A stretch of 64,000 nt of DNA from an uncultured Candidatus Rokubacteria bacterium (GTDB taxonomy: Bacteria; Methylomirabilota; Methylomirabilia; Rokubacteriales; DASRDR01), in NCBI GenBank assembly GCA_963804185.1, contig CAWDPM010000018.1, positions 156,848 through 220,847 of the forward strand. The letters are read 5' to 3'. Shown in pieces: positions 12,413-64,000 of the stretch; position 1 is the stretch's first letter, and each line of letters starts with the position of its first letter. The translations under genes and the position numbers were made by a program. Under the pieces are notes generated by a model. The model saw only the letters and a list, made by a program, of their open reading frames with translations, was not told where the DNA came from and made no database searches.

Positions 12413-12522
12413 GACCCATCAGGTCATGTGCGAGCACGGTGAGCGGGAAACGAGCCGCTCGACGCCGCCGAGGATCTGCCCGGCAAGGCGCCTCGTCAAG
12501 TAGCCGGGGGCGAGCTTTAGGC

Positions 12523-14249: not shown

Positions 14250-14386
14250 CGCCCCGGCAGCGCCCGCGCGACGCGGGCGTCTTGACGCCGGGAAAGGCGC
14301 CAACCATAGTTGGGCGAGCCCGGAGGCGAAATCGTGCTCCTTGTCGGCCCGCACCCGTCACGACGGCGACCCGAAGGCCTCCCCTG

Positions 14387-15367: not shown

Positions 15368-15443
15368 CACCCGGTCGGCGTCGTCACCACGCGTCCAGGA
15401 TCGCATCGCGGGCGACGCCAGACCGACCCGGGAGGCATCGACG

Positions 15444-15701: not shown

Positions 15702-15819
15702 CCGGAAGCTCGGGGCCGCCGCGGCCAGAGGGGGTGAGGCGAAAAGCAAACGGGGCAGGGCACTGCTGGTGGCAGGAGCGCCGCGGTCGCGGCGCGAGAT
15801 CAACCAGGGAGGGACGGGC

Positions 15820-16972
15820 GATGAGCTACGGACAACGTGTCGTGGTGGCACTGGGGACGGTCGCGCTCCTGCTGGGGCCGGGCACTGGCCCGCCGGCGGT
15901 CGAGGCCCAGCAGGTGGTCAAGATCGGCGTCGAGGGACCCATCACGGGGCCGCTCGCCAAGATGGGCCAGGAGCTGGCCAACGCCGTCAAGCTGGCGGCG
16001 GAGGACTGGAACAAGAAGGAGGGCGGCGTCCTCGGGAAGAAGATCGAGGTCGTCGAGCTGGACGACCAGAACAACCCGCAGGCGGGGGTGTCCGCGGCGG
16101 AGAAGGCGGTCGCGGATCCCGCGGTGCTGGGCGTGGTGATCGGAGTGGCCAGCGCCATCTGCATCCCCGCGTCGGAGGTCTTCGAGCGGGCGAATCTCGC
16201 GATGATCAGCCCGGGCTGCAGCAGTCCGAAGGTGACGGACCGGGGTCTGAAGGTGACCAACCGAGTCTGCGCGCGGGACGACTTCCAGGGGCCGGCGATG
16301 GCGATCTTCGCCGTCCAGGAGCTCAAGGCCAAGAAGCTCGCGATCTTCGACGACGGCACCACGGGACCGCGGGTGGGTGCGGACGAGGTGGAGAAGAAGG
16401 CGAAGGCGCTCGGGGCGACGACCCACCGCTATGTCATCCGTTCCGGGGACAAGGATTTTCGCGCCGTCCTCGGCACGATTCCCAAGGACATCGACGTCAT
16501 CGTGCCCGTCCTCTGGGCTCCCGACGCCGCCCTCATCGCCAAGCAGCTCCCCGACGTGGGCCTGAAGGTCCGGATGGTGGGCCCCGACGGGCAGTTCGAG
16601 CCGGTCGACTACATCGAGGCCTCCGGCGGCGCCGCGGAGGGGAACTACGTCACGTTCTTCGTGCCCGACATGAAGAAGGTCCCGGCCGCGGTCGAGTTCG
16701 TGAAGGCATACGAGGCCAAGTACGGGCCGCTCTCCTCCTACGGGCCGCTGGCGTACGAGGGGGCCAACATCATCCTGACGGCGATCAAGAAGGTGGGAAA
16801 GGCCGACCGGGCGGCCGTCCGCGACGCGGTCCGGGCCACGAAGGGCTACCGGGGGATCCTCGGGCAGGACATCACGTTCAACGAGAAGGGCGACGTGGCG
16901 AACCCGGTGCTCTACGTCTACCAGGTCAAGGGCAAGAGTTTCGAGCTGATCAAGCCCGTCGTCGTGAAGTAG
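15820..16972 (+). CDS. Branched-chain amino acid ABC transporter substrate-binding protein (LivJ/LivK family)
   Basis: Signal peptide followed by VKIGVEGPITGPLA...GQEL and a periplasmic binding protein type I fold signature. The start is at MSYGQR. Confidence 0.85.
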
Positions 16973-16989
16973 GGTCTTCCGCCAGCGGG

Positions 16990-17772
16990 ATGGCGCTCTT
17001 CGAGACGGCAGGGCTGACGAAGGACTTCGGGGGGCTCCGGGCGGTCGACGCCCTCGACCTCCGCGTCGAGGACGGCGAGATCGTCGGGCTGATCGGCCCA
17101 AACGGCTCGGGCAAGACGACCGTGTTCAACGTGATCACGGGTCTCCACCGGGCCACCGCGGGCCGTGTCCGCTTCGATCACGGCCGCCGGGAGCTGACCG
17201 CCCTGCCGTCTCACGCCATCACCGCGGCCGGCATCGCGCGCACCTTCCAGAACCAGCGCCTCTTCGGTCAGATGACCGTCCTCGAGAACGTGCTGGTGGG
17301 TATGCACTGTCGGACTCGCGCGGGAATCGCGGGTATCCTCCTGGGCACCCCGGGGACGCGGGCGGAGAAGCGCCGGGCGCGAGAACGTGCCGCGGAGCTG
17401 CTCGCGCTTTTCGGCAGCCGGCTCCTGCCCCGGGCCGATCGGCCGGCCCGGACACTCTCCTATGCCAACCGGCGCCGGCTGGAGATCGCCCGCGCGCTCG
17501 GCACCGCTCCGCGGCTCCTCCTGCTGGACGAGCCGGCGGCAGGGATGAACCCGACCGAGACGCAGGAGCTGATGGGCGACATCCGGCGCATCCGCGACGA
17601 AGGTATCGCCATCCTGCTCATCGAGCACGACATGCGGCTGGTGCGGGGCATCTGCGAGCGGGTCGTCGCCCTCGACCACGGCCTCAAGATCGCGGAGGGC
17701 ACCTTCGAGGAGGTGCGCGACACCCCCGCGCTGCTCGAGGCCTACCTCGGCCGCCGAGGCGCCCGTGCTTAA
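16990..17772 (+). CDS. Branched-chain amino acid ABC transporter ATP-binding protein (LivG-like)
   Basis: Walker A GPNGSGKTT, ABC signature LSYANRRRLEIARAL, Walker B LLLLDEPAAGMN. Confidence 0.85.
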   Translation: MALFETAGLTKDFGGLRAVDALDLRVEDGEIVGLIGPNGSGKTTVFNVITGLHRATAGRVRFDHGRRELTALPSHAITAAGIARTFQNQRLFGQMTVLENVLVGMHCRTRAGIAGILLGTPGTRAEKRRARERAAELLALFGSRLLPRADRPARTLSYANRRRLEIARALGTAPRLLLLDEPAAGMNPTETQELMGDIRRIRDEGIAILLIEHDMRLVRGICERVVALDHGLKIAEGTFEEVRDTPALLEAYLGRRGARA

Positions 17773-31318: not shown

Positions 31319-31557
31319 TGGGCTGCCCGGTCTGTGAGCCGGTGTAGGCCGGTCATCGACAGGAGCCTATCGTCAGCGCTCGGAGGCCGTCAAGTCCGGG
31401 GTCAGCTGGTGCGTGGTCAGCTGGGGCGAGGAGTTGACGAGCCCGGTGGAAGATGGTGTGGTTTCAGCGGCCCGGCAGTCCACACGCGTCCGCGGCGCTG
31501 CTCCTCGATGCCGAAGAGCTTGGGGCTCGTGGGGGTGGACGACGGAGGAGGAAAGCG

Positions 31558-32115
31558 ATGACGGAACGCATCATCCTGCGAACAGGCGAGGCGCTCGTGG
31601 CCGGAGGGCCGCCGGGAACGGCGGCGGAGCCCGAGGTCGTGATCGGCGCCCTGGACGGTCCGGTCGGCACCGCGATGGCCACGCTCATCGGCGCCCAGGT
31701 CAAGGGGCACACCCGCGTCTTCGCGCTCCTCAACACCGACGTGCAGGTCCGCCCCGCCACCCTGATGGTCAGCAAGGTCACGGTCCGGGGCGAGAAGGCA
31801 ACCAAGTACACGAACATCCTCATGGGTACCGTGCAGGCGGCGATCGCGCATGGCGTGCTCGACGCGGTGCGCTCGGGCGACCTCCCGAGGAGCCAGGTGA
31901 ACGAGCTTGGCATCATCTGCGCCGTCTGGCTGGCCCCGACCATCGTCGACGTGGCCGACCTCGATCACCGGATGCTGTTCGACATCCATCGCCGCGGGAT
32001 GGCGAAGGCGATAGGCAAGGCCATGCGCCACGAGCCGTCGATCGACTGGTTGCTCGAGAACCAGGACAAGGTCGTGCACCGGTATTTCCAGATGGGAGTC
32101 GAGGGCAAGATCTAG
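31558..32115 (+). CDS. Formaldehyde-activating enzyme (Fae/Fhm family) homologue
   Basis: 185 aa. GEALVAGGPPGTAAEPEVVIGALDGPVG and RPATLMVSKVTV align with Fae ([22 protein letters not shown]...KPNTLMFNKVTI). There is a good RBS (GGAGGAGG) upstream. Confidence 0.6.
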   Translation: MTERIILRTGEALVAGGPPGTAAEPEVVIGALDGPVGTAMATLIGAQVKGHTRVFALLNTDVQVRPATLMVSKVTVRGEKATKYTNILMGTVQAAIAHGVLDAVRSGDLPRSQVNELGIICAVWLAPTIVDVADLDHRMLFDIHRRGMAKAIGKAMRHEPSIDWLLENQDKVVHRYFQMGVEGKI

Positions 32116-33746: not shown

Positions 33747-34817
33747 TCAGACCGACGGGCGCGTCCGATCCGGGCCCGCGAGTTCACCCGACGGCACGTC
33801 GGCGGCCCCTCCGGTCGGGGCCGAGGCGCGCCCGGCCGTTGCGGCGCCTGCGCCGGCGGAGGGTGTCTTGGGGCCGCGCATGGTCGCGAGGCAGATGTAA
33901 CCGATGAGGATCCAGACACCTTCCCGGAACCGGCGCGCGACACCGAAGGCCAGCCCGGTGCTCGATTCGAGGCCGAGCAGGGCGAAGATGCCGACGAGCC
34001 CTCCCTCGAACACGCCGATCGATCCTGGAATCAGGAACCCGACCGCGCGTACGCCGGTCGCGCCCGCTTCGATGACCAGCGCGGTCAGGAGCGACACCGG
34101 CGCGCCGAGCAGGACCAGCATTAGCCACGTCTCGAGTGCGCCGGCGGCCCACCCCACGAGGCTCAGACCGAGGGTCGCCGCCGCCCGCCCGCGCCGTTCC
34201 CGGTAATACCAGCGAAGGTCGGCGTCGAGCCGCGCGCCTCCGGCCGCGACGCGGTGGCCCAGTCCGATCCATGCGAGCGCCCGCCCACCCAGCCGGAACA
34301 TTCCTCGGACCTGCGCCCACGCGAAACCCGCCGTCGAGAGCGCCATGTAGGCCGCGAGCAGGGCAAGCATCGAAAGCATCGCCGGCGACGTGTCCGAGAG
34401 CCCCCACGCGAGGAGCAGGGCGCCTGCGATGAACGCTGCCAGCGATGCGACGAGTGCCGTCTTGGCCACCACGACCGAGACGAGCCCCTCCTCGACGGGC
34501 ACCCCCGCACCTACGCGCACGAGGAGGAACGCCTTCAGGGCTTCCCCGCCCATCGTGCCAGTCGGCGTGGTCTCGTTCACCGCCTCGCCAGCGAGGCGGA
34601 CCGGAAAGAGAAGCCCGAACCGCGGGCGCGTCCGGGGGAACGCCGTGCCCCATCCCACCGTCTTGAAGACGTTCGTCACGAGCTGGGGAAGGAGAATCAG
34701 CGGGAGACGCCAGGAGAGCTTGCGCAGCTCGGCGATGAGCGCGGAGACCCCGATTTCCCAGACGAGCCAGACGAGGATGCCGCCCCCCGCCAGGATGGCC
34801 AGCGGGCGGAGCGCCTT
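33747..34817 (-). CDS. UPF0104 / lysyl-phosphatidylglycerol-synthase-TM-like ('flippase-like') membrane protein
   Basis: Polytopic. It is a paralogue of the 44275-45291 gene (shared patterns LLVRVGAG..EEGLVSVVVAKTA and ALVIEAGATGVR). The start is uncertain; the ORF extends to 35000 but the N-terminal approx. 60 aa look non-native. Confidence 0.55.
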   Translation of the reverse strand, partial: KALRPLAILAGGGILVWLVWEIGVSALIAELRKLSWRLPLILLPQLVTNVFKTVGWGTAFPRTRPRFGLLFPVRLAGEAVNETTPTGTMGGEALKAFLLVRVGAGVPVEEGLVSVVVAKTALVASLAAFIAGALLLAWGLSDTSPAMLSMLALLAAYMALSTAGFAWAQVRGMFRLGGRALAWIGLGHRVAAGGARLDADLRWYYRERRGRAAATLGLSLVGWAAGALETWLMLVLLGAPVSLLTALVIEAGATGVRAVGFLIPGSIGVFEGGLVGIFALLGLESSTGLAFGVARRFREGVWILIGYICLATMRGPKTPSAGAGAATAGRASAPTGGAADVPSGELAGPDRTRPSV

Positions 34818-35231
34818 CACGGGCGGCGCGCGGGCGAGAGGAGTGACGCCGAAGGATGTGCGGAGCAAGTCTCGTGGCAGCTCACCGAGGATGCATCTTA
34901 CGCCAAGGAGCGCAAGCGGCGGGGGTGTTGCGGGCGGAAACCCTCCCCTCCGCACCCGGGATCCCGCAGGGGCGTCGGCCGACCACGAGCCGACCGGCAT
35001 CGGGAGGCTCCGGCTGGCCGATGTCAGGCCCGCGCAGGCGGGAGGCGCTTGACGCTCGCGTGGGCATCGGGCATGGTTCTTACGTTCCCGAGCGGGAGGT
35101 GCGGATGCGACGGCCCCCGGGCGCGCCCGCGGACCGTGGCACGGCCCGGAGCCTTCTCACCTGTGGGCAACGGGAGGTCCGCTCGGGTCAAGGGTTAGCG
35201 AAGTCGCCATTCCAGAAATGGAGGACCATCC

Positions 35232-44274: not shown

Positions 44275-45291
44275 ATGGTTCTTGCTGAGAGGACTCGAGT
44301 GCGAATCCTGCGAGCTCTGCCCCTCGCCGCTGGCCTCCTCGCGCTCGTCCTCCTCATTCGCCACTTTGGCCTGGAATCCCTGACCGCTGCGCTCACACGA
44401 ATCGCCTGGTGGCAGTTCGTCCTGGTCTGCCTCATTTACGGGGTCAGCATGGTCCTGGACACGCTCGGCTGGCGCGCCACGCTCGTGGCCGACCGGCCGC
44501 CGTTCGTGAGGCTTCTGGCGGCGCGGTGCGCGGGCCAGGCGGTTAACGTGATCACGGCGCTGGGCGGACTGGGAGGAGAAGCGATCAAGGCGTGGCTCGT
44601 GCGCCGGGACATCCCTTATGAGGCCAGCGTTCCGTCGCTCATCCTTGCCAAGACAGCCGAGGTGGTGGGGCAGGCGCTGCTGCTCGCTACCGGGATCCTG
44701 GTCGGGTGGGCGACGGGCGTCGTCGGATCGACCCTCCTCATCCCGATGTGCTACCTGCTCCTCGTCGAGGTCATCGGCGTGGGCGGATTCATCGTGGCGC
44801 AGGTGGCGGGAGGTGTCGGCCGTGTGGGACGCCTCCTGGCGTGGGCAGGCGTCGGGCGCGGAGTGGGCCGCGTCGACGGCGCGGTCCGCGACTTCTACCG
44901 CTCGCACACGAGGTCGCTCCTGACCTCGGTCGGGTTTCACTTCGCCAGCTGGCTCGTGGGTGTCGTGGAGGTCCTGCTCATTCTCCGCGCCTTGCACGTG
45001 CCGGCCTCGCTGGTGACAGCTACGGTCATCGAAGCCCTCGGGACCGGCGTGCGGTTCGCCACGTTCTTCGTCCCGGCGAGCCTCGGCACGCTGGAGGGCG
45101 CCAATGCGGCGGCGTTCGCGGCGCTGGGATGGGCCGCCAGCGACGGGTTGGCCTTCAGCCTCGTGCGACGCGGCCGCCAAGCGGTCTGGATCGGGGTCGG
45201 GCTCGCGATCCTCGGGGCTGTGGGAGCCATCGGAGGCACGCGGGACGCTGGTCAAGAGCCGGCTTCGCCGACCCCGGCCCGCGTCGATTGA
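44275..45291 (+). CDS. UPF0104 / lysyl-phosphatidylglycerol-synthase-TM-like ('flippase-like') membrane protein
   Basis: Polytopic. It is a paralogue of 33747-34817 and is divergently transcribed from the PAP2/OMP pair. Confidence 0.6.
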   Translation: MVLAERTRVRILRALPLAAGLLALVLLIRHFGLESLTAALTRIAWWQFVLVCLIYGVSMVLDTLGWRATLVADRPPFVRLLAARCAGQAVNVITALGGLGGEAIKAWLVRRDIPYEASVPSLILAKTAEVVGQALLLATGILVGWATGVVGSTLLIPMCYLLLVEVIGVGGFIVAQVAGGVGRVGRLLAWAGVGRGVGRVDGAVRDFYRSHTRSLLTSVGFHFASWLVGVVEVLLILRALHVPASLVTATVIEALGTGVRFATFFVPASLGTLEGANAAAFAALGWAASDGLAFSLVRRGRQAVWIGVGLAILGAVGAIGGTRDAGQEPASPTPARVD

Positions 45292-48016: not shown

Positions 48017-48841
48017 GTGAGCGGGAACCCGGCGGCGGCGCTCCGCAATGGCGCGGGATGGGAGACCGTCCTCAGGGCGCCGGCCCAGGGTCAGCACGTC
48101 GCGCAGCTCTACAGCGAGCGGCGCTTTCTGTTCCATGCGGTCGGTGAGTTCGTCGGCGCCGGCCTTCGGCAGGGTGAGGCAGTCCTCCTCATCCTGACGC
48201 CCGCCCACCGTCACCCCATCGTGCGTCAGCTCGAGGGCCAGGGGTTCACGCTCGGGGATCTCTCGCGCCGCCGGCAGCTGACCATCCTCGATGCCACGCC
48301 GACCCTGACCGAGTTGATGGTCGGTGGTCTGCCGAATCGCGAGCGTTTCCAGCTGGTGATCGGCGGAGCGGTCGAGGCGGCGAGGGCCGCCGGATATCGG
48401 AAGCTACGCTCGTTCGGCGAGATGGTGGACGTGCTGCGTCGAACCAGCCTCACCGCCACGTTGCAGCTGGAGGCGCTGTGGAGCGAGCTGGTGCTGGCTC
48501 ATGGGATGGCGCTCCTGTGTGGCTATTCGATCGACAACTTCGATCCCCATACCTACCAGGGGATCCTGCAGGGCGTCAGCAGGGCGCACTCCCATCTCGT
48601 TCCCGTCGAGGACTACGCGCGCCTGGAGCGGGCGGTGGAACGGGCCTACGCGGAGGTCTTCGGTGTCAGGCGCGACGCAGGTTTTCTGCGTCGGGCGTTT
48701 CTCGCCCACTACCCGAGACCGGCCGTGATGCCCGACGCCGAGGCGGCCATTCTCGCCGCGAGGGAGTTCGTTCCGGCGGCGGCCAGCACGCTCCTCGAGC
48801 GGATCCGGCACCACTACCAGAGCTCCACGCCGACAGCCTGA
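48017..48841 (+). CDS. MEDS-domain protein (putative sensory/regulatory)
   Basis: HVAQLYSERRFLFHAVGEFVGAGLRQGEAVLLILTP resembles the N-terminal MEDS (DcmR sensory) domain. The identification is tentative. Confidence 0.45.
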   Translation: MSGNPAAALRNGAGWETVLRAPAQGQHVAQLYSERRFLFHAVGEFVGAGLRQGEAVLLILTPAHRHPIVRQLEGQGFTLGDLSRRRQLTILDATPTLTELMVGGLPNRERFQLVIGGAVEAARAAGYRKLRSFGEMVDVLRRTSLTATLQLEALWSELVLAHGMALLCGYSIDNFDPHTYQGILQGVSRAHSHLVPVEDYARLERAVERAYAEVFGVRRDAGFLRRAFLAHYPRPAVMPDAEAAILAAREFVPAAASTLLERIRHHYQSSTPTA

Positions 48842-49209
48842 CCGTCACGCGCCGATGCCGGGCCTGACCGCCTTAGGTCAGGCGACCCAGCGGACCCAGA
48901 TCCAGCTTCAGATCTTCCGGCGTGAGACCGAACCGCCGGGCCAGTGCGCGAATGGCCCTCTCCAGCCTCAGGAGAGCTCCGGCACGAGCCAGATCGGGCG
49001 CCCGGGGAATGCTGCACGGACGGCGGCGATGGCCTCGAGCTCGGCGCCCACCCGTTGGCGCTCGAGCGCGTCCCTTGCGCTCCGAGGCGCGTGACCCGGT
49101 TCACGAGAATCTCGCCGATCGCGATGCCGCTCACTTCCAGCGCGCGCACTGCATCGCGCCCCTCTTCCACGGCCAGTGAGGCCGCCGACGAGGAGGGTGT
49201 CGAGGATGA

Positions 49210-50193
49210 TCACTCGGACTCCTGCGCGCGCTCGAGCTTCAGACGGATGTTGACGAAGTTGTACGGCGGCCAGGGCCCCGTGTAGCGGAAGGTGAGCTTG
49301 TCGTAGAGTGCGCCAACCTCCTTGACCTTCGCGTCGAAGGCCGTTTCCTTGTCCCGGGAGACGAGGAAGGCCGCGTTCATGATCATCTTGTCGCCGATGG
49401 GCTTGTTGGCGCGGGCGGCCACCGACACGTCCCGCAGCTGCGCGAAGATGTCGGATGCGTACTGATCGGTCCGCGCCTGGAGGGCCGCCTCGATCTGCCG
49501 GCCATACTGCATGCGGGCGAAGTAGGTCGAGCCCGGGACGGCCGCGATCTCGTTCTTGAGCCGCCGGATGTCCTCGTCGTCGTTCTCGATCTCGCGGACC
49601 ATGACATCCCGGTCCCACAGGACCTTGAGGCCGAACTCCACCTTGTCCTGCATCTTGTCGAGCACGTCCCGGAAAGCGTCGTAGGCGCCCCGCAGGAGCT
49701 CCACGATGTCGTCGCGCGTCTTGAACACGGTTCCGAAAGACATCGGGATCACCGTGAAGCTCTTCATCACCGTCTCGTTGACTCGCTCGTGAGCGAGGAC
49801 GTTCTCGCGCGTCGCGTCCAGCACCTCTTCCGGGGTGTCCGAGATGACCGCGGCGATCTCCCGGAAGCCGACGGTCTGGACCTCGGTCGGCTCGCCACCG
49901 AGACTGATCGCCCCGAACCGACGCGGCTCGGCGCTCCGGATGATGCAGTAGACGTACTTGGCGCGGCTGTCGGTTGATCGGCTCACGGGAGCCCCACTGC
50001 CGGGGCCGGGACGCTGCCGGAGGGGCGCCCTCGAGACGGCGTCGCCCGTCGACACGTCCGCCGCCGGTGCGCGTTTTCGCTCCACGGGGAGCTTGACGGG
50101 CGTCGCGCGCTTCGCGGCCGTCGGGGGGGGCGAGGGGAGGGGCCGTGGCGTTACCGTGCGACGGGCCCTCGGTTTCGAGGGCTTCTTCTTCAC
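49210..50193 (-). CDS. GvpF/GvpL-family protein (gas vesicle protein F/L homologue) with basic Pro/Lys/Arg-rich N-terminal extension
   Basis: It aligns to GvpF/L along the whole domain: YVYCII vs LYLYGIF, ENVLAHERVNETVMKSFTVIPMSFGTVF, VEFGLKVLWD, MIMNAAFLVSRDKETAFDAKV..LTFRYTGPWPPYNFVNI. The GTG start is about 5 nt downstream of the receiver gene stop. The N-terminal approx. 110 aa are low-complexity and basic. Confidence 0.75.
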   Translation of the reverse strand: MKKKPSKPRARRTVTPRPLPSPPPTAAKRATPVKLPVERKRAPAADVSTGDAVSRAPLRQRPGPGSGAPVSRSTDSRAKYVYCIIRSAEPRRFGAISLGGEPTEVQTVGFREIAAVISDTPEEVLDATRENVLAHERVNETVMKSFTVIPMSFGTVFKTRDDIVELLRGAYDAFRDVLDKMQDKVEFGLKVLWDRDVMVREIENDDEDIRRLKNEIAAVPGSTYFARMQYGRQIEAALQARTDQYASDIFAQLRDVSVAARANKPIGDKMIMNAAFLVSRDKETAFDAKVKEVGALYDKLTFRYTGPWPPYNFVNIRLKLERAQESE

Positions 50194-50197
50194 GACG

Positions 50198-50653
50198 TCA
50201 CCTCTCGTTCTTCGGCCGGGACTTCGGCGAATCGAGGATACGCCGGATGGCGTCCAGGAGCTGATCCGGCAAACAAGGTTTCGTGATGACGAGATCGCAG
50301 CCGGCCTCGCGAGCCGTCTGCGCGTGCTCGGGCAGGGCATGCCCGGTCAGCACGACGACGGGGATCTTCTTCGTCCGGGGGTCGCGCTTCAGGCGCCGGG
50401 TGGCCTCCCAGCCGTCCATCACCGGCAGCGAGAGGTCCATGACGATGATGTCCGGCTTGAGCGCCTCGGCCTGGCGGATAGCGTCCGCGCCGTTCTCGGC
50501 CTCGGCGACTCGGAAGCCCGAAAACTTTAGGAAGAGCACGTACACCGTCCGGTTGTCCTGGACGTCGTCCACGATTAGGACGAGCGGCCCGTTCTCGTCG
50601 CCCGCCGCCACGTCCTTCCGCGTCCCGGGCTCGGCGGCGTTCTTCGTCATCAC
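50198..50653 (-). CDS. Single-domain response regulator (CheY-like receiver)
   Basis: LIVDDVQDNRTV...IIVMDLSLPVMDGWEA...KIPVVVLTGH. There is no output domain. The ATG overlaps the kinase stop (ATGA). Confidence 0.85.
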   Translation of the reverse strand: MMTKNAAEPGTRKDVAAGDENGPLVLIVDDVQDNRTVYVLFLKFSGFRVAEAENGADAIRQAEALKPDIIVMDLSLPVMDGWEATRRLKRDPRTKKIPVVVLTGHALPEHAQTAREAGCDLVITKPCLPDQLLDAIRRILDSPKSRPKNER

Positions 50654-52791
50654 CGCTTCGACCCGAGAGGGAGGATGAGGGTGAAGATGGAGCCCTGGCG
50701 GAGCTTGCTCTCGAGGGTGATCCGACCACCAAGCACCACCGCGAGGCGGCGGGAGATCGACAGTCCGAGACCAGTCCCGCCGGCCTCCCGCGTCAGAGTG
50801 GGATCGGCTTGAGAGAAGGCCTCGAAGATCCGTGCCTGATCCGCCTCCGCGATGCCGATGCCGGTGTCGGCGACCGCGATGGCCAACTCCCGGGTCGATC
50901 TCTGGTGCGTGCAGGAGACGGTCACCGAGCCGCGCGGCGTGAACTTGAGCGCGTTCGTGAGGAGGTTCAGGAGGATCTGCTTCACCTTCTGGCGGTCGCT
51001 CCGGATCGGGGCGAGTCCCGGCGGGACATTCGCGGTCACCGCCAGGTTCGAGCGTGCGATGAGCGGCTCGACCTCGCTCATGATCTCGTCGACCAGCTCG
51101 TTCAGCTTGATCGAGGAGAGCCGAACCGGCATCTTGCCGGCCTCGATCCGCGAGATGTCGAGGATCTCGTTGATCAGGGTCAGCAGGTGGCGGCCGTTGG
51201 CGTCGATGCGGGCCAGGGACTCCCGCTGGGTCGGACCCAGCGGGCCCGAGACGCCGCGGAGGAGCAGGCTCGTGTAGCCGAGGATGGCATTGAGGGGTGT
51301 CCGCACGTCGTGGGAGACGTTGGCCAGGAACTGGGACTTGGCCACCGACGCCTGCTCCAGCTCGATGGCCTGCCGGCGGAGGAGCTCGTTCTGGTGGGCG
51401 AGCGCCGATGTCGCCTCCTGGACCCGTCGCTCGAGCTGGGCCGAGGCCGCCTTAAGCTGCTCGTAGAGCTGCTCGCGCTCGATGGCCTCCGCCCGGTCGT
51501 GAAGGATGGTGACGATGGCCGACACCTCGGCGGAGTCGCCGTACACTGTACCCGACACGGCCTCCATCGGCACCTGCTGACCCGTCTTGGGGTCGACGAG
51601 GTTCACGCCGCCGTGGTACCGCGACTGTCCGGTCTTCCCGAAGAGGAGGTTCGACACGAACGAGGTGAAGTGCGCGTCGTTCGCCTGGACGCGCTGGGTC
51701 TCGGCCGGGCTCGCGTTCTCGGAGGTGGAGAAGAGGCGCTCGGCCGGAGTGTTCATCATCACGAGGTTGCCTGAGGGGTCGGTGACGAGGATGGGATCGG
51801 CGACCGAGTCGATGACGAGATCAAGCCGGTCGCGCTCGGCCCGAACTTCCGCCTCCGTGGCGCGCAGCTTCCGGTAGTTCTCCTGGATCTCCAGGGTCGC
51901 GCGCCGGAGGTCGGACACGTTCCGCAGGATGGACACGATGCCCATGCCAATGCGCGCGTCCCCGGCCGTCGTGCTGATCAGCTCGAAGAGCAGATCCGAC
52001 CCCTCGGTGGGGTCCACCAGCGCGAGCTCGTGGGGCGCCGACCGCAGGGGCTCCACGGCGCTTCGGCCGAGCGCCGACGAGAACAGGATGTTATTGATGG
52101 CCACCGCCCGGCGGCGGCCCTCGCTCTCGTCCTCCCGCGTGGCGAAGAGGCGCTCGGCTCGCGCGTTCGCGATGACCATGCGACCCTCGGTGTCGGTCAG
52201 CATGATCGGATCGGTCACCCGGTCGAGGACGCTGTGGAGAAGATCGCGCTCTCGGCGAAGGCGCCGCTCGGCCTCGACGCTGGTGGCACTCATCCGCGCG
52301 CGCGCGAGCCGGTACCCGAGATACTCGGATGCCCATGCGAGCTCGTGCCGGTTCGCGGTGACCGGGCGGACCAGCAGTAGCCCCGTCGGCGCCTCCACTT
52401 CGGCCTGAGTGCCATGGAGCGGCATGGCCAGGATGGGCGGACGCCCGGAGAAGAGTGGCCCCGTCGTCTCCCTGGACACCACGACGGGTTGCGACGCGGA
52501 CAGGACACGGACCAGGGGATGCTCCCGCGCCTCCAGGTCGAGCGTGAAGCCGTTGACGGCTTCATGCAGAGCGCCTCGGGCCGCCAGGTGAATCAGCCGT
52601 GTTCGATCCGCGTCCAGCACGAGACAGCGGCCCTCTCGCAAGCCCGCGTGTTCCGTGAGCCACTCGAGACATCGCCGGACCATCTCGGCCGCGTCTTCAC
52701 AGGCAAGGAGAAACTCCAGGAGCGCGAGCCGCTCCTCAGGTCCCGGCTCGGGCCGTCGCGCCGGTCGCGCCGACGCAGCGCCGCGCGTCAC
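50650..52791 (-). CDS. Cytoplasmic multi-sensor histidine kinase (GAF-like + two PAS + HisKA + HATPase_c)
   Basis: No TM helices. The PAS cores are LDRVTDPIMLTDTEGRMVIANARAERLF and IDSVADPILVTDPSGNLVMMNTPAERLF. The H-box is FLANVSHDVRTPLNAILGY. N, G1 and G2 boxes are present (LLNLLTNALKFT, DTGIGI, GGTGLGLSI). Confidence 0.85.
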   Translation of the reverse strand: MTRGAASARPARRPEPGPEERLALLEFLLACEDAAEMVRRCLEWLTEHAGLREGRCLVLDADRTRLIHLAARGALHEAVNGFTLDLEAREHPLVRVLSASQPVVVSRETTGPLFSGRPPILAMPLHGTQAEVEAPTGLLLVRPVTANRHELAWASEYLGYRLARARMSATSVEAERRLRRERDLLHSVLDRVTDPIMLTDTEGRMVIANARAERLFATREDESEGRRRAVAINNILFSSALGRSAVEPLRSAPHELALVDPTEGSDLLFELISTTAGDARIGMGIVSILRNVSDLRRATLEIQENYRKLRATEAEVRAERDRLDLVIDSVADPILVTDPSGNLVMMNTPAERLFSTSENASPAETQRVQANDAHFTSFVSNLLFGKTGQSRYHGGVNLVDPKTGQQVPMEAVSGTVYGDSAEVSAIVTILHDRAEAIEREQLYEQLKAASAQLERRVQEATSALAHQNELLRRQAIELEQASVAKSQFLANVSHDVRTPLNAILGYTSLLLRGVSGPLGPTQRESLARIDANGRHLLTLINEILDISRIEAGKMPVRLSSIKLNELVDEIMSEVEPLIARSNLAVTANVPPGLAPIRSDRQKVKQILLNLLTNALKFTPRGSVTVSCTHQRSTRELAIAVADTGIGIAEADQARIFEAFSQADPTLTREAGGTGLGLSISRRLAVVLGGRITLESKLRQGSIFTLILPLGSKR

Positions 52792-52794
52792 GGT

Positions 52795-53103
52795 CTAGGC
52801 GGGCTGGGGCGTCCGCCGCGCCCCACGGGGCCGCGTGGCGCCCGAGAGTGTGGCCGCGAGTTGCGCCCGGAGGGCGGCGTTCTCGGCGAGGACGGCTTCC
52901 TGGGAGATGACCGCGGCCGTCCGTGACACTGGTGGTAGCTGCGCTACCCACTCCGAGTACCTCAGGTAGGTGTCGATCGAGGCCACCACGGCTCGTGCCT
53001 CGACCGTGATCAGGTCGATGCCCATGAGAAGTCCCTTGTCGAGGACCCGGTCGAGCAGGTCGACAAGACCGGTGCCCCGCTGTCCCGCTAGATCGGTCCG
53101 CAC
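52795..53103 (-). CDS. GvpA/GvpJ-family small protein (gas vesicle structural protein homologue)
   Basis: LVDLLDRVLDKGLLMGIDLITVEARAVVASIDTYLRYSEWV matches the GvpA core (L.dvLdriLDkG.v..........iEaR.viASveTYLryaEa). The beta-hairpin region is about 9 aa shorter than in canonical GvpA. The 45-aa C-terminal extension is GvpJ-like. Its stop abuts the kinase start. Confidence 0.7.
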   Translation of the reverse strand: MRTDLAGQRGTGLVDLLDRVLDKGLLMGIDLITVEARAVVASIDTYLRYSEWVAQLPPVSRTAAVISQEAVLAENAALRAQLAATLSGATRPRGARRTPQPA

Positions 53104-53235
53104 GTTTCGGGCCCACCCCTTTCACGCCAGTAGCGACCCGATGAGCTGAGGGGCCCCGCCGAAGGGACCGCCGCCCGCCCCGAAGACCCGATGCGGTGCC
53201 AGGATAGTCGACGACCCCGCCCACCGCAAGGTCGC

Positions 53236-53266
53236 GGGTCAGGCGTGGGTCAGGCGGGACGGTCAG
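53236..53266. promoter_or_regulatory. Triple GGTCAG direct repeat in the 500-bp leader upstream of the gvpJ-like operon
   Basis: cGGGTCAGgcgtGGGTCAGgcgggacGGTCAG with 11-13 bp spacing, 130-165 bp upstream (operon sense) of the GvpA/J-like start. Confidence 0.25.
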
Positions 53267-53600
53267 CTGGGACATGCCGCCCAAGCAAGCGGCATCGATC
53301 GTGGGATCTGACCTTCGATGCGTGCAGGGAAGCGCGATCGAGGGCTCACCCTCAGAACTGAGTTTCGAGCGCTGGGGACCGCGTTCCAAGGCAAGAGTCG
53401 ACTCTCTTGGCGCGAGCTCCTCACGGTGGGGAACGCGATCTGGCCCAGCTGATCAAGGACGGCTGTCCCAGGGATGATTTGCGCCGGCGATCGGCGTCGT
53501 GCGCTGGAGAGGCCCCGTCCGTCGCGACGATATGGCGCGTGGACGACGCACATCATAGGCCCGTCGGACGTCGGAGTGCCCGGAAGAACTCGAGCCGATT

Positions 53601-54089
53601 TCAGCTCCTGGGCCGGGGTGTCTCGCGTCCGGGCGGCGTGGGACCGTGCCGCCGGGGGATCACGGAAATCTCGCCGCTCCGCTCGAGGATGGCTTCTTCG
53701 ATGTCCTCCACGCGCGCCACCCCGTGCCGCTCGCGGGCCGAGGCCAGGATGTCGTCCATGTCGACGCGCTCACGCGCCATGTCCTCGTCCCGCGGCTTCC
53801 CGTTCCGGAAGAGGACCAGCGGCACGCCATCGATCAGGGCCTCGAGGCGCGGTGACCGTCGCTTGACCAGCGACAGCCCGATGTCCAGGAGGACCAGGGT
53901 GAAGACGATGAGTGCGGCGTTCGTGAGGGAGTAGTCGTTTCCGACCAGGCCGTTCTGGATGGCCTCGCTGATGATCAAGAGCAGCACCAGGTCGAAGGTC
54001 GTGGTGTGAGCGAGTGTCCGCTTGCCAGCCACCCGGAACAGTCCGAGCAGGAGGACGTACACGATCCCGGCCCGCACGACGGACTCCAT
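53601..54089 (-). CDS. DUF421 (YetF-like) membrane protein
   Basis: N-terminal TM pair, then the conserved DUF421 region LVLLLIISEAIQNGLVGNDYSLTNAALIVFTLVLLD and a C-terminal soluble domain. Confidence 0.65.
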   Translation of the reverse strand: MESVVRAGIVYVLLLGLFRVAGKRTLAHTTTFDLVLLLIISEAIQNGLVGNDYSLTNAALIVFTLVLLDIGLSLVKRRSPRLEALIDGVPLVLFRNGKPRDEDMARERVDMDDILASARERHGVARVEDIEEAILERSGEISVIPRRHGPTPPGRETPRPRS

Positions 54090-54611: not shown

Positions 54612-54762
54612 CGCAGCTCCTCTTTGGTGCAAGAGGGCTGCCACGGGCCCGCCCTGTCCGCGGTCACGACATGCTGTCGACTGCAACCCCGAAGTTGGCA
54701 ACGCCCCGGACTGGCCTGGCGGCTGGGGGGCACGCCCCTTGCTACCGTCTCGTCGGGTTGAG

Positions 54763-56112
54763 ATGAATCGTCGGATCTTCGGCCTCGAAAGCGAGTACGG
54801 CCTTACTTGCACGCATGAGGGCCGGCCTGTCCTGGCCCCCGATATACTCGCGCGATTCCTGTTCGAGGAAGTCGTCCCGGGTCCGAGGTATCCGAATGTC
54901 TTCCTGGAGAACGGCGGCCGGCTGTACGTGGATACCGGCTTCCATCCTGAGTACGCCACGCCGGAATGCGACGACCTCATCGAGCTCGTGGCATACGACC
55001 GGGCGGGCGAGCGGCTCGTCGAGGACCTCGTGTGGCGGGCCGATCGGCGACTCAAGAACGACGGGATCACTGGGCGAATCCAGGCGTTCAAGAACAACAC
55101 GGACTCCGCCGGCAACTCCTACGGCTGTCACGAGAACTACCTCGTGTCGCGTGGCACGCCCTTCCCCCGTCTGGTGGAGGCGCTGATTCCCTTCCTTGTC
55201 AGCCGTCAGGCCTTCGCGGGCGCCGGCAAGATCCATCGCGGCCGGCGCGGCGTGGAGTACCACCTGAGCCAGCGCGCCGACCATATCGTCGACGAGGTGT
55301 CGGGAACCACGGTGTCCGGCCGACCCATCATCGACACGCGCGACGAGCCGCACGCGGACGGCGGGCGGTTTCGCCGCCTCCACGTGATCGTCGGCGACTC
55401 CAACATGTCCGACGTGGCGACCTACCTCAAGGTCGGCACCACTGCCCTCGTGCTCGATATGGTCGAGGACGGGTTCTTCGACCAGGACGTCGGGCTCGAG
55501 TCCGCCGTCGACGCCCTGCACACCATCTCGAGGGATCCTTCGCTTCGCGAGCCGGTGCGGCTCAAGGACGGTCGCGCCTACACGGCCCTCGAGATCCAGC
55601 TCGCCTACCTGGAGAGGTGCCAGGCCCACGAGCACCGGGTCGGGGGCGACGCGACCTCGCGGGCAGTGCTGAGGCGGTGGAGCGACGTCCTGGCGGGGCT
55701 CGCGCAGGACCCGCCGGCGGCGCAGCGCGAGGTGGACTGGGCCATCAAGCGCTCCCTGATCGAGCGCTACATGACGAAGCATGCCTGCTCGCTCGAGGAT
55801 CCCCGTGTCGCCCAGCTGGACCTCCAGTACCACGACATCCGCGCGGGACGCGGTCTCTACCATCTCCTTGCCCGGCACGGCGAGGTCGGGACGCTTGTCC
55901 GCGACGAAGTTGTCGAGCGGGCGAAGCACCGCCCGCCCCAGACCACTCGGGCGCGCCTGCGTGGCGACTTCGTCCGCCGCGCGAACCTTCTGGGGTGGGA
56001 GTACCAGGTGGATTGGGCCTACGTGAGGACGCTGGGTCCGGACAGCGAGACCATCCTCTGTCCAGACCCCTTCCTTGCCCACGACGAGCGAGTGGAGCGG
56101 CTAGCGGCCTGA
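54763..56112 (+). CDS. pafA: Pup-protein ligase PafA (PafA/Dop family, carboxylate-amine ligase fold)
   Basis: MNRRIFGLESEYGLTC...YPNVFLENGGRLYVDTGFHPEYATPECD...AFKNNTDSAGNSYGCHENYLV closely tracks the PafA N-terminal and catalytic regions. The Dop deamidase alternative is not fully excluded. Confidence 0.8.
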   Translation: MNRRIFGLESEYGLTCTHEGRPVLAPDILARFLFEEVVPGPRYPNVFLENGGRLYVDTGFHPEYATPECDDLIELVAYDRAGERLVEDLVWRADRRLKNDGITGRIQAFKNNTDSAGNSYGCHENYLVSRGTPFPRLVEALIPFLVSRQAFAGAGKIHRGRRGVEYHLSQRADHIVDEVSGTTVSGRPIIDTRDEPHADGGRFRRLHVIVGDSNMSDVATYLKVGTTALVLDMVEDGFFDQDVGLESAVDALHTISRDPSLREPVRLKDGRAYTALEIQLAYLERCQAHEHRVGGDATSRAVLRRWSDVLAGLAQDPPAAQREVDWAIKRSLIERYMTKHACSLEDPRVAQLDLQYHDIRAGRGLYHLLARHGEVGTLVRDEVVERAKHRPPQTTRARLRGDFVRRANLLGWEYQVDWAYVRTLGPDSETILCPDPFLAHDERVERLAA

Positions 56113-56136: not shown

Positions 56137-56817
56137 CTAGGAAGCGCGAGCGGACGACGCGCCGCTCGGCCGGCTCTGGAGCGGATGCCGCGGGGCGCTC
56201 GGGGCCCCGGGCGAGACCAGGCGTTCGAGGTCGAGCCGGTGCGAGGGCTTGATGTCAGCCCTGAACACCCGCCGCATGTACATGAGTGCCCGCCGATTGG
56301 CCTGCCGATCTGCCGACGCCACGCAATCCCCCGGCACGAACAGGCGATAGGCCCGGAGGTATGCGTCGGCGGCGGTCAGGAGGACGCACGCGTCCCCCGC
56401 GAGGCCGGCCAGGACCAGGCTCCTCGCTCCCAGGTGCGTCAGCAGCAGCTCGAGCGGCGTCGCGTAGAAACCGGAGTGCTTCGGCTTGACGACGGCGTAG
56501 TCGTCGCGCTGGGGCTCGAGCAATCTCACGACGGGCCGACCACGGACCGGCTCCTGGAGACACCGGCGCACCACGGCGCTGAACTCCGACCGCCACTTCC
56601 CGAAGTTATCGTTCACGTAGACCACAGGAATTCCGAGGTCCTTGCATCGACGCTTGAGCCGGGCGAGCCGCCGCGCCATGGGCAGCGCGTGGCGCAGCAC
56701 GCTCCCGCCCTCGGGAAACTCTAGGTCGTTGACGACATCGATCAGGAGGAGGGCGACCGGCGCGGTATCCGGGGCATTGCCGTGAAGGTCGTCGTCACCA
56801 GTCGTCTTCCGTGGCAT
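56137..56817 (-). CDS. Isochorismatase-family cysteine hydrolase
   Basis: ALLLIDVVNDLEF...PVVYVNDNFGKW...SGFYATPLELLL...LVLAGLAGDACVLLTAADAY is the isochorismatase/CSHase fold with its catalytic Cys. Confidence 0.75.
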   Translation of the reverse strand: MPRKTTGDDDLHGNAPDTAPVALLLIDVVNDLEFPEGGSVLRHALPMARRLARLKRRCKDLGIPVVYVNDNFGKWRSEFSAVVRRCLQEPVRGRPVVRLLEPQRDDYAVVKPKHSGFYATPLELLLTHLGARSLVLAGLAGDACVLLTAADAYLRAYRLFVPGDCVASADRQANRRALMYMRRVFRADIKPSHRLDLERLVSPGAPSAPRHPLQSRPSGASSARAS

Positions 56818-57032
56818 GGCGTCAGGCGTCAGCGATCATGCGTGCCGTGACCGGGGAACCGGGAACCATCCACGCGCACCGCGTATCCATGAGGATCAGA
56901 GACGGCTCTCTTGCTGGGGTATCCGCAAGTGTCGTGCCCGCGACGCTCGGCGGCCGGCGAGGTGTCATGCATCAATACAAGACGCCACCACTGACTCGGC
57001 GTCGGCACACACCTTGCTCGGGTGACTGTGCC

Positions 57033-58115
57033 ATGACGGACGCAGTCCGACGAGACATGAGGCGGGGGCGGGCACGCCCTTGTCAGGATGATCCTTCCGC
57101 CACGGCGCAGGCGGCGCACCTGCGCCATGTGACCGATGCCCAGCCCGGCATCCGCCGGCTACGCGCGGGTCGGGGATTCCGCTACGTGAGTGCCGATGGA
57201 GCGCCCGTCCGCGATCCCGCGATCCTTCGCCGGATCCGTGCGCTGGCAATCCCGCCCGCCTGGCAGGCCGTCTGGATCTGTCCGGCGGCGCACGGACACC
57301 TGCAAGCCGTCGGGCGCGACCGCCGGGGGCGCAAGCAGTACCGCTACCATTCGCGGTGGCGCGCCGTCCGGGACGAGACGAAGTACGCTCGGCTCGTCGA
57401 GTTCGCCCGGGCGCTGCCCCGCATTCGCACTCGCGTGCGAGCCGACCTGGCCCGGCGGGGCCTGGCTCGCGAGACGGTGCTCGCGACGGTGGTCCGATTG
57501 CTCGAGAGCACGGCCATCCGTGTTGGCAACCAGGAATATGCGCGGCAGAACGGCTCCTTCGGGCTCACGACGCTGCGTAACCGGCACGTGACCGTCCAGG
57601 GCTCGCAGCTCTGCTTCGAGTTCCGGGGGAAAGGCGGGAAGCGCCACTGCGTGAAGGTCAGCGACCGTCGCATCGCCGCGATCGTCCGCCGGTGCCAGGA
57701 CCTCCCGGGCCAGGAGCTGTTCCAGTACCGCGACGAGTCGGGTCAGAGCCAGACGATCGACTCCGCCGACATTAACGCCTATCTGCGAGAGATCGGCGGC
57801 GGCCCTTTCACCGCCAAGGACTTTCGAACCTGGGTCGGCACCGTCCTCGCGACTCGCATCCTCGCGGGGAGAAGACAACCGGCGCCGACGCGAGCCGCTC
57901 GGCTGCGGCGTGTGCGTGAAGCCATCGCACATGTCAGCCTCCAGCTCGGCAACACGCCCACGATCTGCCGCAAGTGTTATGTGCATCCGGTGGTCATCGA
58001 GACGTATCTGGAGAAACGGTCCCGTCGCCGCCCCCATCGGCACCTCATCCGGCGTGGGCTTCGACGTGACGAGCTCTCGGCACTGTCGATCCTCAGCGAG
58101 AGGGTGGCTGCCTAG
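57033..58115 (+). CDS. Bacterial (poxvirus-type) DNA topoisomerase IB
   Basis: RGFRY...IPPAWQ.VWIC....GHLQAVGRDRRGRKQYRYH, catalytic-region residues, and the C-terminal active-site Tyr context LGNTPTICRKCYVHP, as in bacterial TopIB. The start is chosen at MTDAVRRD. Confidence 0.7.
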   Translation: MTDAVRRDMRRGRARPCQDDPSATAQAAHLRHVTDAQPGIRRLRAGRGFRYVSADGAPVRDPAILRRIRALAIPPAWQAVWICPAAHGHLQAVGRDRRGRKQYRYHSRWRAVRDETKYARLVEFARALPRIRTRVRADLARRGLARETVLATVVRLLESTAIRVGNQEYARQNGSFGLTTLRNRHVTVQGSQLCFEFRGKGGKRHCVKVSDRRIAAIVRRCQDLPGQELFQYRDESGQSQTIDSADINAYLREIGGGPFTAKDFRTWVGTVLATRILAGRRQPAPTRAARLRRVREAIAHVSLQLGNTPTICRKCYVHPVVIETYLEKRSRRRPHRHLIRRGLRRDELSALSILSERVAA

Positions 58116-63477: not shown

Positions 63478-64000
63478 TCAGGCGCTCGCGGCGTCACCCT
63501 CCAGCACGCAAACCGCCTCGGGATCGAGGGTCTGGGGCGAGACGGTCTCGACGCAGAACAGATGCAGGCTGTCACGGTCGTGCGACCGGTAGCCGACCGA
63601 GAGATCGCCGCCGACGGTGAGGATGAAGTCGCCGCCCCGCATCGAGAAGAGCGCCCCGCCGTCTCGCATCACGAGAGACCGGTGGACATCGGCCACGATG
63701 GCCTTGGTGTGCCGAGTCACCGGGTAGCCGCGGTTCGCGGCCGAGAGATACGCGTAGTAGCGATCGGGAGACAGGACCGCCTCGTACGGGCCGGGCACCG
63801 TCAGCCGGTCCAGCATCTCGACAGCCCGGACGAGATCGGCGATGACGCGAGCGGGATCCGACCAGTCACCGAGCTGGAAGCGCGACGACCGCGGATCCTC
63901 GAGAAATCCGGTGCCCACGGGCTGGCCCGAGTACGCGAGGCGTTCCTCCGCGAGTCCGACCTCGCGCGCGGCGGTCTCGGCGGGCGCCGCGTCGAGCGCC
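63478..64000 (-). CDS. Family-1 encapsulin (linocin M18-like) shell protein, 3' portion. The gene continues beyond the right edge of the window.
   Basis: The C-terminus SMRGGDFILTVGGDLSVGYRSHDRDSLHLFCVETVSPQTLDPEAVCVLEG aligns with the T. maritima encapsulin [47 protein letters not shown]. The frame stays open to position 64000. Confidence 0.7.
   Translation of the reverse strand, partial: ALDAAPAETAAREVGLAEERLAYSGQPVGTGFLEDPRSSRFQLGDWSDPARVIADLVRAVEMLDRLTVPGPYEAVLSPDRYYAYLSAANRGYPVTRHTKAIVADVHRSLVMRDGGALFSMRGGDFILTVGGDLSVGYRSHDRDSLHLFCVETVSPQTLDPEAVCVLEGDAASA

Follow-up and report, generated by a model that had tools for sequence, protein, structure and literature searches.

Probable Decay of a Gas-Vesicle Gene Cluster in an Uncultured Rokubacteria Bacterium, with Sparing of Its Embedded Kinase, Receiver and GvpF/L Protein

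Results

Genes and gene remnants at the locus

A 64,000-nucleotide stretch of DNA from an uncultured Candidatus Rokubacteria bacterium (GenBank assembly GCA_963804185.1, contig CAWDPM010000018.1, positions 156,848 to 220,847), hereafter the window, contains a compact block of genes that combines gas-vesicle (gvp) homologues with a two-component signalling pair. The block, at 49210-53103, is filled by four open reading frames (ORFs), all on the minus strand, and is followed by the remnants of three further genes and by a convergent gene that is not itself a gvp gene. The search region was the entire window, and coordinates are window positions unless another contig is named; L001 and L005 are contigs of relatives with intact clusters, which are described below. 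The features of the locus are as follows:

52795..53103, minus strand: chimeric small gene, 102 aa (PF00741 Gas_vesicle, tblastn, blastn breakpoints)
50650..52791, minus strand: sensor histidine kinase (HK), 713 aa (Pfam: two PAS regions, HisKA and HATPase_c, with an N-terminal region ahead of them)
50198..50653, minus strand: stand-alone CheY-like receiver (REC), 151 aa, without an output domain (Pfam Response_reg)
49210..50193, minus strand: GvpF/L-family protein, 327 aa from the GTG at 50193 (Pfam PF06386)
49178..49213, minus strand: gvpG remnant, start codon plus 11 codons (V/M-IILDTLLVGGL; tblastn, blastn breakpoints)
48938..49176, minus strand: piece of the first ArsA-like ATPase gene, covering residues ~231-309 of the L001 protein of 381 aa (tblastn)
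48876..48977, minus strand: gvpK remnant, last 34 codons plus the native stop (tblastn, blastn versus L005 15083-15193)
48017..48841, plus strand: MEDS-domain gene, convergent, not a gvp gene (Pfam MEDS, 88.7 bits)

The tight coupling of four co-directional genes and their order (GvpA/J-like protein, kinase, receiver, GvpF/L), which had been noted in an earlier reading of the letters and ORFs alone (the sequence-only reading), are confirmed by the ORFs, their spacings and the Pfam matches, with corrections in detail. The kinase start lies 3 nt beyond the stop of the small gene as described, but it is a GTG rather than an ATG; the kinase stop does overlap the receiver start, but as GTGA or TGATG rather than ATGA; and the GvpF/L GTG (50193), which had been placed about 5 nt from the receiver stop, is indeed tightly spaced and lies 4 nt past it. 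A scan of 48700-53700 for promoters and terminators returned nothing above chance.

The HisKA and HATPase_c domains of the kinase score 76.6 and 93.3 bits, respectively, and the H, N, G1 and G2 boxes read from the translation (SHDVRTP, NLLTNALKF, DTGIGI and GGTGLGLS) are intact. The kinase is cytoplasmic, and its translation contains no hydrophobic segment. The two PAS regions of the proposed GAF-PAS-PAS architecture are recovered, but no GAF domain is detected by Pfam at E <= 0.1. The receiver matches Response_reg with 97.4 bits, and its translation contains the motifs DD, MDLSLP, LTGH and TKP, which supply the acidic pocket, the phospho-acceptor aspartate, the threonine and the lysine. By motif content, the two proteins form a classical two-component pair of a HisKA kinase and a receiver with the required residues, and phosphotransfer between them is predicted. 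No dedicated NCBIfam family is found for the kinase, the receiver or the MEDS protein, every match lying under its cut-off. Sequences identical to the window kinase, receiver or GvpF/L protein are absent from the protein collection searched, which does not include the source contig.

The last ORF belongs to the GvpF/GvpL family, as had been proposed: it matches PF06386 (GvpL_GvpF) with 255.2 bits over practically the whole model (positions 2-245 of 245), and its relatives in the PDB are 6L5D (E 2e-19) and 4QSG (E 4e-17). It falls under the NCBIfam equivalog cut-offs for both GvpL and GvpF, and it is therefore a family member to which neither named orthology can be assigned. A 376-aa ORF from 50340 overlaps the receiver gene, and relatives start in the same way as the GTG at 50193, which is most likely the real start. 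From this codon, the protein begins with an extension of ~75 residues (49963-50193) that is basic and rich in proline and alanine. The protein is the orthologue of the first among the three GvpF/L paralogues of the ancestral cluster. Across 155 orthologues, the extension of this REC-adjacent paralogue comprises tens of residues, with a median net charge of approximately +14 and about half of its residues being Pro, Ala, Gly, Ser or Thr; in the other two paralogues of L001 it is much shorter or absent.

The intact cluster type in relatives

The small protein has 2,359 database relatives, nearly all of which are ~10 residues longer. The contig of one of them (P0011) is L001, which carries an intact gvp cluster at 8899-17565 with the following genes in order (Pfam assignments):

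Genes 1-4: Gas_vesicle, 120 aa; Gas_vesicle, 113 aa; PAS/HisKA/HATPase kinase, 707 aa; Response_reg, 140 aa
Genes 5-8: GvpL_GvpF, 315 aa; GvpG, 108 aa; ArsA_ATPase, 381 aa; ArsA_ATPase, 310 aa
Genes 9-12: GvpL_GvpF, 279 aa; Gas_vesicle, 81 aa; GvpL_GvpF, 230 aa; GvpK, 118 aa

The second L001 gene is a true gvpA, as judged by NCBIfam and by an end-to-end alignment with the Anabaena GvpA (8GBS, residues 1-70), and the first is a GvpJ/M-like paralogue. The same full gene order is found in L002, and the cluster of L005 occupies 6482-15193. In L167 and L168, from a relative labelled Vicinamibacterales by its source, the order is again the same, with a single 650-aa two-domain ArsA-like gene; the closest relatives of the window instead carry it as two separate genes of one domain each.

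Two scans that used the window GvpF/L protein as an anchor yielded 160 loci (GTDB species genomes, 80; JGI metagenomes, 80), and 162 loci carry this GvpF/L orthologue once the loci fetched earlier are added. A receiver lies directly upstream of the GvpF/L orthologue at 145 of 145 loci with enough flank, the kinase and the receiver together at 112 of 112 informative loci, and gvpA stands ahead of the pair at 109 of 109. The next gene after the orthologue is gvpG at nearly all loci (147/152), and gvpK is present at 68 of 80. The metagenome-assembled genomes (MAGs) that carry the cluster are labelled Rokubacteria/Methylomirabilota, Myxococcales and Vicinamibacterales/Acidobacteriota, and no members of the GvpN, GvpC and GvpO families are found within 10 kb in the annotated examples. 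The association of gas-vesicle genes with a phospho-relay, which the sequence-only reading had proposed, is borne out by these counts. Because of their invariant upstream position in relatives, HK and REC are an ancestral, invariant component of the cluster, and not something that a GvpA/GvpF pair was built around.

Start/stop coupling of REC with the first GvpF/L gene (gvpF/L-1) is frequent, and the adjacency of the two genes is invariant; natural REC-GvpF/L fusion proteins are absent among 144 loci. The neighbourhood survey that had been suggested for a recurring four-gene block returned no independent lineage with the same set among the 162 loci. The contig L013, which begins within the kinase gene, was considered as a second independent locus with only HK, REC and GvpF/L, and it was rejected: its downstream flank matches the upstream flank of L014, inverted, and an inversion that split the cluster is the better explanation.

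Two variations of the signalling genes are seen among the relatives. One subgroup of Methylomirabilota has a second kinase-receiver unit inserted between gvpF/L-1 and gvpG, which is only distantly related to the first (~35% identity; L014 11057-12256; also L017, L020, L023, L025, L029 and L013, where the unit is a single 503-aa ORF). In some Vicinamibacterales (L046, L048, L052, L058, L060, L066, L072, L074, L079 and L081), two gvp sub-clusters lie within ~10 kb. In the first of these, the GvpF/L orthologue follows a different kinase-receiver pair (~25-30% identical) and a GvpA-family gene; the second has a GvpJ-like gene, gvpA and HK at its start, and then REC in several loci.

Three deletions at the orthologous site

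Both flanks of the locus are syntenic with L005 and L001, which identifies it as the orthologous site, and the retained genes are orthologues of those in L001 (HK, 74% identical over its full length; REC, 80%; GvpF/L, 87%). The MEDS gene is the conserved neighbour past gvpK in the closest intact clusters (L001, L005 and L006) and shows where the cluster originally ended. The closest genome, which served as the breakpoint reference, is L005, a Rokubacteria MAG with 91% identity in GvpF/L and ~80% nucleotide identity. Three junctions are found in the nucleotide alignments, and the breakpoints are consistent against L005, L001 and L006:

J1, window about 53024-53028: L005 6588 joined to 6977, ~390 bp lost
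J2, window 49177/49176: L005 10807 joined to 11780, ~970 bp lost
J3, window about 48975-48977: L005 11982 joined to 15083, ~3.1 kb lost

Relative to L005, ~4.5 kb is lost in total at these junctions, which show little or no homology. J1 fuses the first ~28 GvpJ-like codons in frame to gvpA codon ~35, J2 leads from gvpG codon 12 directly into the middle part of the ArsA-like gene, of which the first ~230 codons are gone, and J3 links the ArsA fragment to gvpK from codon ~85 onward.

The gvpG remnant corresponds to residues 1-12 of the L001 GvpG (11/12 identical, tblastn), and its GTG overlaps the gvpF/L stop, likewise in intact clusters. The ArsA-like fragment, which aligns with L005 11780-11982 in blastn, contains an internal frameshift near 49090, so that residues 231-259 are read in one frame and residues 259-309 in another (tblastn, E 3e-11); in the ArsA frame, the protein match extends slightly beyond J3. 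Together with the gvpG stub, this fragment makes up an 81-aa nonsense ORF (48968-49213). The gvpK remnant corresponds to residues 85-118 of the L001 GvpK (85% identity, E 4.5e-14, tblastn). Pfam returns no GvpG, ArsA or GvpK match on the two frames downstream of gvpF/L, and because the pieces are too short or frameshifted for it, they are visible only by tblastn with the proteins of intact relatives. No other intact gvp gene is found in the 64 kb by Pfam on ~55 further ORFs and tblastn with 13 cluster proteins. The statement that the window holds no other gvp genes is thus correct for intact genes, but it overlooked the three downstream remnants.

The four genes are leftovers of three deletions at the same site, and the layout does not represent a dedicated GvpA-like/GvpF-like pair set around a two-component system. 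It had also been considered that the block might be the regulatory end of a full gvp cluster immediately outside the window; this does not hold literally, in that a full cluster did exist, but inside the locus, and was deleted. In L086 and L085, the same 12 GvpG residues continue into a full GvpG and an ArsA-like gene, and since L086 shares 93% nucleotide identity with the window in gvpF/L, J2 and J3 are recent. The locus has the gene order and the site of the cluster type of soil phyla but not its complete gene set. With one intact gvpF/L, a fused and truncated gvpA and mere stubs of gvpG and gvpK, it falls short of a functional gas-vesicle cluster, and because gvpA is broken and gvpG, two gvpF/L paralogues, gvpS/M and gvpK are gone, it cannot yield gas vesicles.

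The window junctions recur in four other metagenome assemblies, L003, L004, L165 and L166. The J1 junction is identical in L003 (JGI) and L004 (ENA), with the sequence CTCATGGGCATCGAC, and L003 shares the upstream DUF421 gene with the window. L165 (ENA; P0121) spans J2 and J3, and its 81-aa nonsense ORF is 95% identical. L166 (ENA, 7.9 kb) aligns to window 54634-48584 over 6 kb with 97.2% identity and contains all three junctions. An assembler could in principle have been misled by the LDRVLDKG-coding stretch that the fused paralogues share, so that mis-joins such as a collapse of the two GvpA-family paralogues would mimic deletions. However, J1 is out of register with this stretch and the L166 alignment is continuous across it, J2 and J3 lie away from repeats and recur in both L165 and L166, and the contigs come from different samples and bear names that suggest different assemblers. 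Given that four further assemblies share the junctions, the deletions are real, and the mis-join explanation is essentially refuted and hardly credible. At 6051-6072, L166 has lost a further ~1 kb relative to window 48584-47578, from the 5' part of the MEDS gene to a DPBB gene, which suggests that erosion at this site is continuing.

The chimeric GvpA-like gene

The 102-aa protein passes the PF00741 threshold, as had been anticipated (27.2 bits versus a gathering score of 25; 29 residues matched over 38 of 39 model positions), but the "GvpA/J-like" gene is in fact chimeric, being composed of parts of two adjacent paralogues. Its 5' end (53103-52972) matches the protein of the first L001 gene, and the L001 GvpA matches it at 53076-52813 (both tblastn), with J1 reading ...GGA CTT CTC AT joined to G GGC ATC GAC.... 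The chimera is without GvpA's own N-terminus and helix alpha-1, and strand beta-1 is wholly absent, which appears as a 9-residue gap at this strand (VIDAWVRVS) relative to the solved GvpA structures 7R1C and 8GBS. The gap arises because J1 does not keep to the register of the LDRVLDKG stretch common to both paralogues. It is also present relative to 16 of 18 aligned relatives, the other two being further fused alleles (P0001 and P0002) whose N-terminus is different as well. GvpA adopts a coil-alpha-beta-beta-alpha fold, and its polymerising beta-hairpin forms the core of the gas-vesicle ribs (PMC9994262); the complete core of this fold is lacking in the chimera. Against the NCBIfam GvpA model (NF006874, cut-off 100 bits), the chimera scores only 54.1, compared with 113.4 for the intact L001 orthologue. 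With J1, the only shell-protein gene of the cluster was lost.

Each of the three fused alleles examined carries a private change at a column that is at least 98% conserved among 112 intact GvpA proteins, whereas 107 of these 112 have no private change at such columns. The ratio of non-synonymous to synonymous substitution rates (dN/dS, omega) for the GvpA-derived part is 0.54-0.94 among fused alleles versus a background median of 0.12, with small counts. The constraint on the chimera is relaxed.

These results bear on the idea, put forward in the sequence-only reading, of a self-contained, signal-controlled assembly that does not serve buoyancy and in which GvpF/L would be the structural partner of the GvpA-like protein. 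The fused gene is in frame, and its ORF is open in alleles from four assemblies with up to 10% nucleotide divergence, although a +1 indel is present close to the 3' end of the copy in L166; together with the score above the Pfam gathering threshold, the purifying selection on the adjoining trio (see below) and the constant adjacency and frequent translational coupling of REC and GvpF/L, this would be consistent with such an assembly. The structural partner itself, however, is a broken chimera with half of its beta-hairpin gone, lacking the strand beta-1 that GvpA polymerisation needs (PMC9994262), falling under the NCBIfam cut-off and accumulating changes at otherwise invariant sites with dN/dS values of 0.5-0.9. 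The layout was also created by deletions that left nonsense remnants downstream, and the 162 loci contain no independent four-gene lineage, L013 being explained by an inversion. An assembly of this kind is thus very improbable.

Selection on the retained kinase, receiver and GvpF/L genes

The informative pair for dN/dS is the window and L166, both of which carry all three deletions, and the premise of the test is that the differences between them arose after the deletions. The values for this pair are as follows:

HK: dN/dS 0.23; 28.5 synonymous, 18.5 non-synonymous; P = 7e-7 for omega < 1
GvpF/L: dN/dS 0.15; P = 7e-6
REC: dN/dS 0.25; 7 differences, not significant
Chimera: dN/dS 0.33; 9 differences, not significant
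DUF421 gene (flanking control): dN/dS 0.15

In intact clusters at similar synonymous divergence, omega is 0.09-0.31 for HK, and for GvpF/L the median is 0.08 and the 90th percentile is 0.16. The effect of sequencing errors on omega would be upward. The window HK has 1 change at 144 columns that are at least 98% conserved, and intact relatives do not have fewer; the window REC has 0 changes at 33 conserved columns, and for HK, REC and GvpF/L alike the changes at conserved columns are not above those of the closest intact relatives. HK and GvpF/L thus appear to be under purifying selection in lineages without the rest of the cluster, and because their dN/dS values are significantly below 1 between truncated haplotypes, the retained trio is probably still functional, by whatever route.

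The alternative is that the whole block is a functionless relic in which disabling mutations have not yet accrued, the low dN/dS values reflecting recombination import or divergence that preceded the deletions. Several observations weigh against a trio that still functions. Recombination with intact-cluster strains could have imported variation that had already been filtered, and the remnant stretch 49223-48864 (~360 bp) shows 0 substitutions between the window and L166 where ~10-18 are expected, given a flanking synonymous divergence of ~5%; L165 differs at 8 sites in this stretch. A recombination tract is therefore possible there. The gvpF/L gene of L166 contains two single-base indels (+1 and -1), which, if real, would mean that GvpF/L is dispensable in that haplotype, but they may be assembly errors because the flanking DUF421 gene has one too. 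In addition, omega is somewhat elevated for gvpF/L between the window and L086 (0.23 versus the median of 0.08) and for the N-terminal part of HK between the window and L004 (0.40 versus 0.22), the differences in REC and in the chimera are too few for a significant test, and the further loss in L166 that includes the 5' part of the MEDS gene also fits a relic. A second gvp locus may also be present elsewhere in the genome, beyond the 64-kb view.

A pure relic is nevertheless distinctly unlikely. Between haplotypes that carry all junctions, the omega values of HK and GvpF/L (P < 1e-5) lie within the range of intact clusters, the conserved columns show no excess of changes, and all three ORFs are open in the window. 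Furthermore, J1 is also present in the 10%-diverged allele L003, which argues that the truncated state is not brand new.

Other genes in and around the window

Several genes outside the block were recorded. Close to the end of the window, a Linocin_M18 encapsulin shell gene (63478-63918) runs off its edge. In relatives, an EncFtn-like cargo gene precedes the encapsulin gene (L001 1079-2283), ~7 kb upstream of the gvp cluster, so that two protein-compartment systems are close together. Upstream of the locus, a Pup-ligase family gene (PafA/Dop-like, Pfam 506 bits) is found at 54739-56112; pupylation genes are not confined to Actinobacteria, and this fits a Rokubacteria-like origin. The gene at 56811-58115 encodes a bacterial type IB topoisomerase (Topoisom_I catalytic core and Top1B_N_bact).

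A signalling block unrelated to gvp genes, at 6393-11226, encodes a histidine kinase with a GAF domain, a receiver-adenylate/guanylate cyclase and a sigma-54 activator of the NtrC type. The product of 25242-27443 resembles the N,N-dimethylformamidase beta subunit in its C-terminal domain, and 31453-32115 encodes a formaldehyde-activating enzyme (Fae); these two genes hint at C1 or methylated-amine metabolism. Two paralogous genes with a lysylphosphatidylglycerol synthase transmembrane region are located at 33747-35000 and 44275-45291.

Discussion

Origin and possible role of the retained trio

Taken together, the remnants, the junctions and the substitution patterns make it likely that the locus is a decayed copy of a 12-gene gvp cluster typical of soil Rokubacteria and Acidobacteria, in which the spared trio is still functioning. 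The ancestor would have contained, in order, a GvpJ/M-like gene, gvpA, the PAS kinase, the receiver, gvpF/L-1, gvpG, one or two ArsA-like genes, gvpF/L-2, gvpS/M, gvpF/L-3 and gvpK, and the three deletions would have removed ~4.5 kb of it and spared the two signalling genes and gvpF/L-1. Where the cluster is intact, the cytoplasmic PAS kinase may sense an intracellular cue and phosphorylate the single-domain receiver, which may in turn control gas-vesicle production, either via partner proteins or by acting on the translationally coupled GvpF/L-1 itself. Because the receiver has no output domain, it must work through a partner, and its invariant adjacency and frequent start/stop coupling make GvpF/L-1 the obvious candidate. 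In the truncated lineage, the trio has probably kept this activity but directs it at a different target; it might act on gvp genes elsewhere in the genome or might have a role independent of gas vesicles. The chimera and the nonsense ORF would be by-products whose openness preserves transcription of the operon and translational coupling; they are probably tolerated, or kept open, only for this coupling.

It is conceivable, though rather unlikely, that the kinase, the receiver and the basic-tailed GvpF/L protein form a self-sufficient signalling unit that is independent of gas vesicles, with the receiver acting directly on GvpF/L. If true, such a unit would explain why exactly these three genes survived the losses of shell and assembly genes, and it would mean a second role for GvpF/L-family proteins and a natural separation-of-function allele of a gvp cluster. 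On the likelier reading of a decayed cluster with a functioning trio, the truncated lineage is a natural experiment in which HK, REC and GvpF/L-1 were kept by selection and the rest was lost, which suggests that the receiver and GvpF/L are functionally linked. The locus also illustrates how the erosion of a cluster can take on the appearance of a new architecture, the telltale signs being short remnants, out-of-register fusions and the comparison of orthologous sites. The intact GvpN-less clusters could be mined for acoustic-reporter engineering.

Comparison with known gas-vesicle systems

No description of this cluster type with an HK-REC pair was found in the searchable literature, and no paper that combines "gas vesicle" with "Rokubacteria" was found. 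A cluster type with a near-canonical GvpA, ArsA-like ATPases and an embedded PAS kinase and receiver is thus apparently both widespread in uncultured soil phyla and undescribed. In Serratia, GvrB is sensor-kinase-like and GvrC is a receiver-type regulator, which would equal the logic of HK and REC. The Serratia regulators encoded in the cluster (gvrA, gvrB and gvrC) are needed for gas-vesicle production and for gvpA1 transcription (PMC4982088, PMC6617781), and the embedding of regulators in gvp clusters has been described for Serratia and other Proteobacteria (PMC4982088). By analogy of gene layout only, the position of these regulators among gvpF-family genes resembles that of HK-REC beside GvpF/L. 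However, the Serratia cluster includes the NtrC-type GvrA, gvpN, gvpC and gvpV, none of which is found within 10 kb in the present cluster type; the gene order also differs, HK-REC lying here between gvpA and gvpF/L-1, and the window copy is truncated.

ArsA homologues inside gvp clusters are described in the gas-vesicle passages of Castillo and Saier (2010, PMC2963123); an acidobacterial cluster among these has two L/F genes and single J, K and M genes. The composition given there matches the right half of the intact relatives, and an embedded kinase and receiver are unmentioned in those passages; the window differs in that it keeps only a frameshifted fragment of ~80 codons of the ArsA-like gene. 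In view of the Serratia regulators (PMC4982088) and of the ArsA-linked clusters as covered in those passages (PMC2963123), the earlier assertion that no described system has this architecture was overstated.

The gvpOAFG-JLSK cluster of Streptomyces is likewise a soil-bacterial gvp cluster without gvpN, for which vesicle production and role have been questioned in passages of PMC4982088 and in Table 1 of PMC9501494. Clusters of the Streptomyces type lack both an ArsA-like gene and an embedded two-component system, and their GvpA is divergent, whereas the GvpA of the intact relatives described here aligns to residues 1-70 of 8GBS. The conserved accessory set comprises gvpF/L, gvpG, gvpK and a gvpJ/M-type gene, with gvpN in most described clusters, according to passages of PMC9501494. 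Loss and degeneration of gvp genes by rearrangement are documented for Anabaena PCC 7120 and for buoyancy-loss mutants of Microcystis in passages of PMC7204071 and by Mlouka et al. (2004), as cited in PMC2963123. Compared with these degenerate clusters, the decay at the present locus appears to be selective, in that the regulatory pair and one GvpF/L protein have been kept under what is probably purifying selection.

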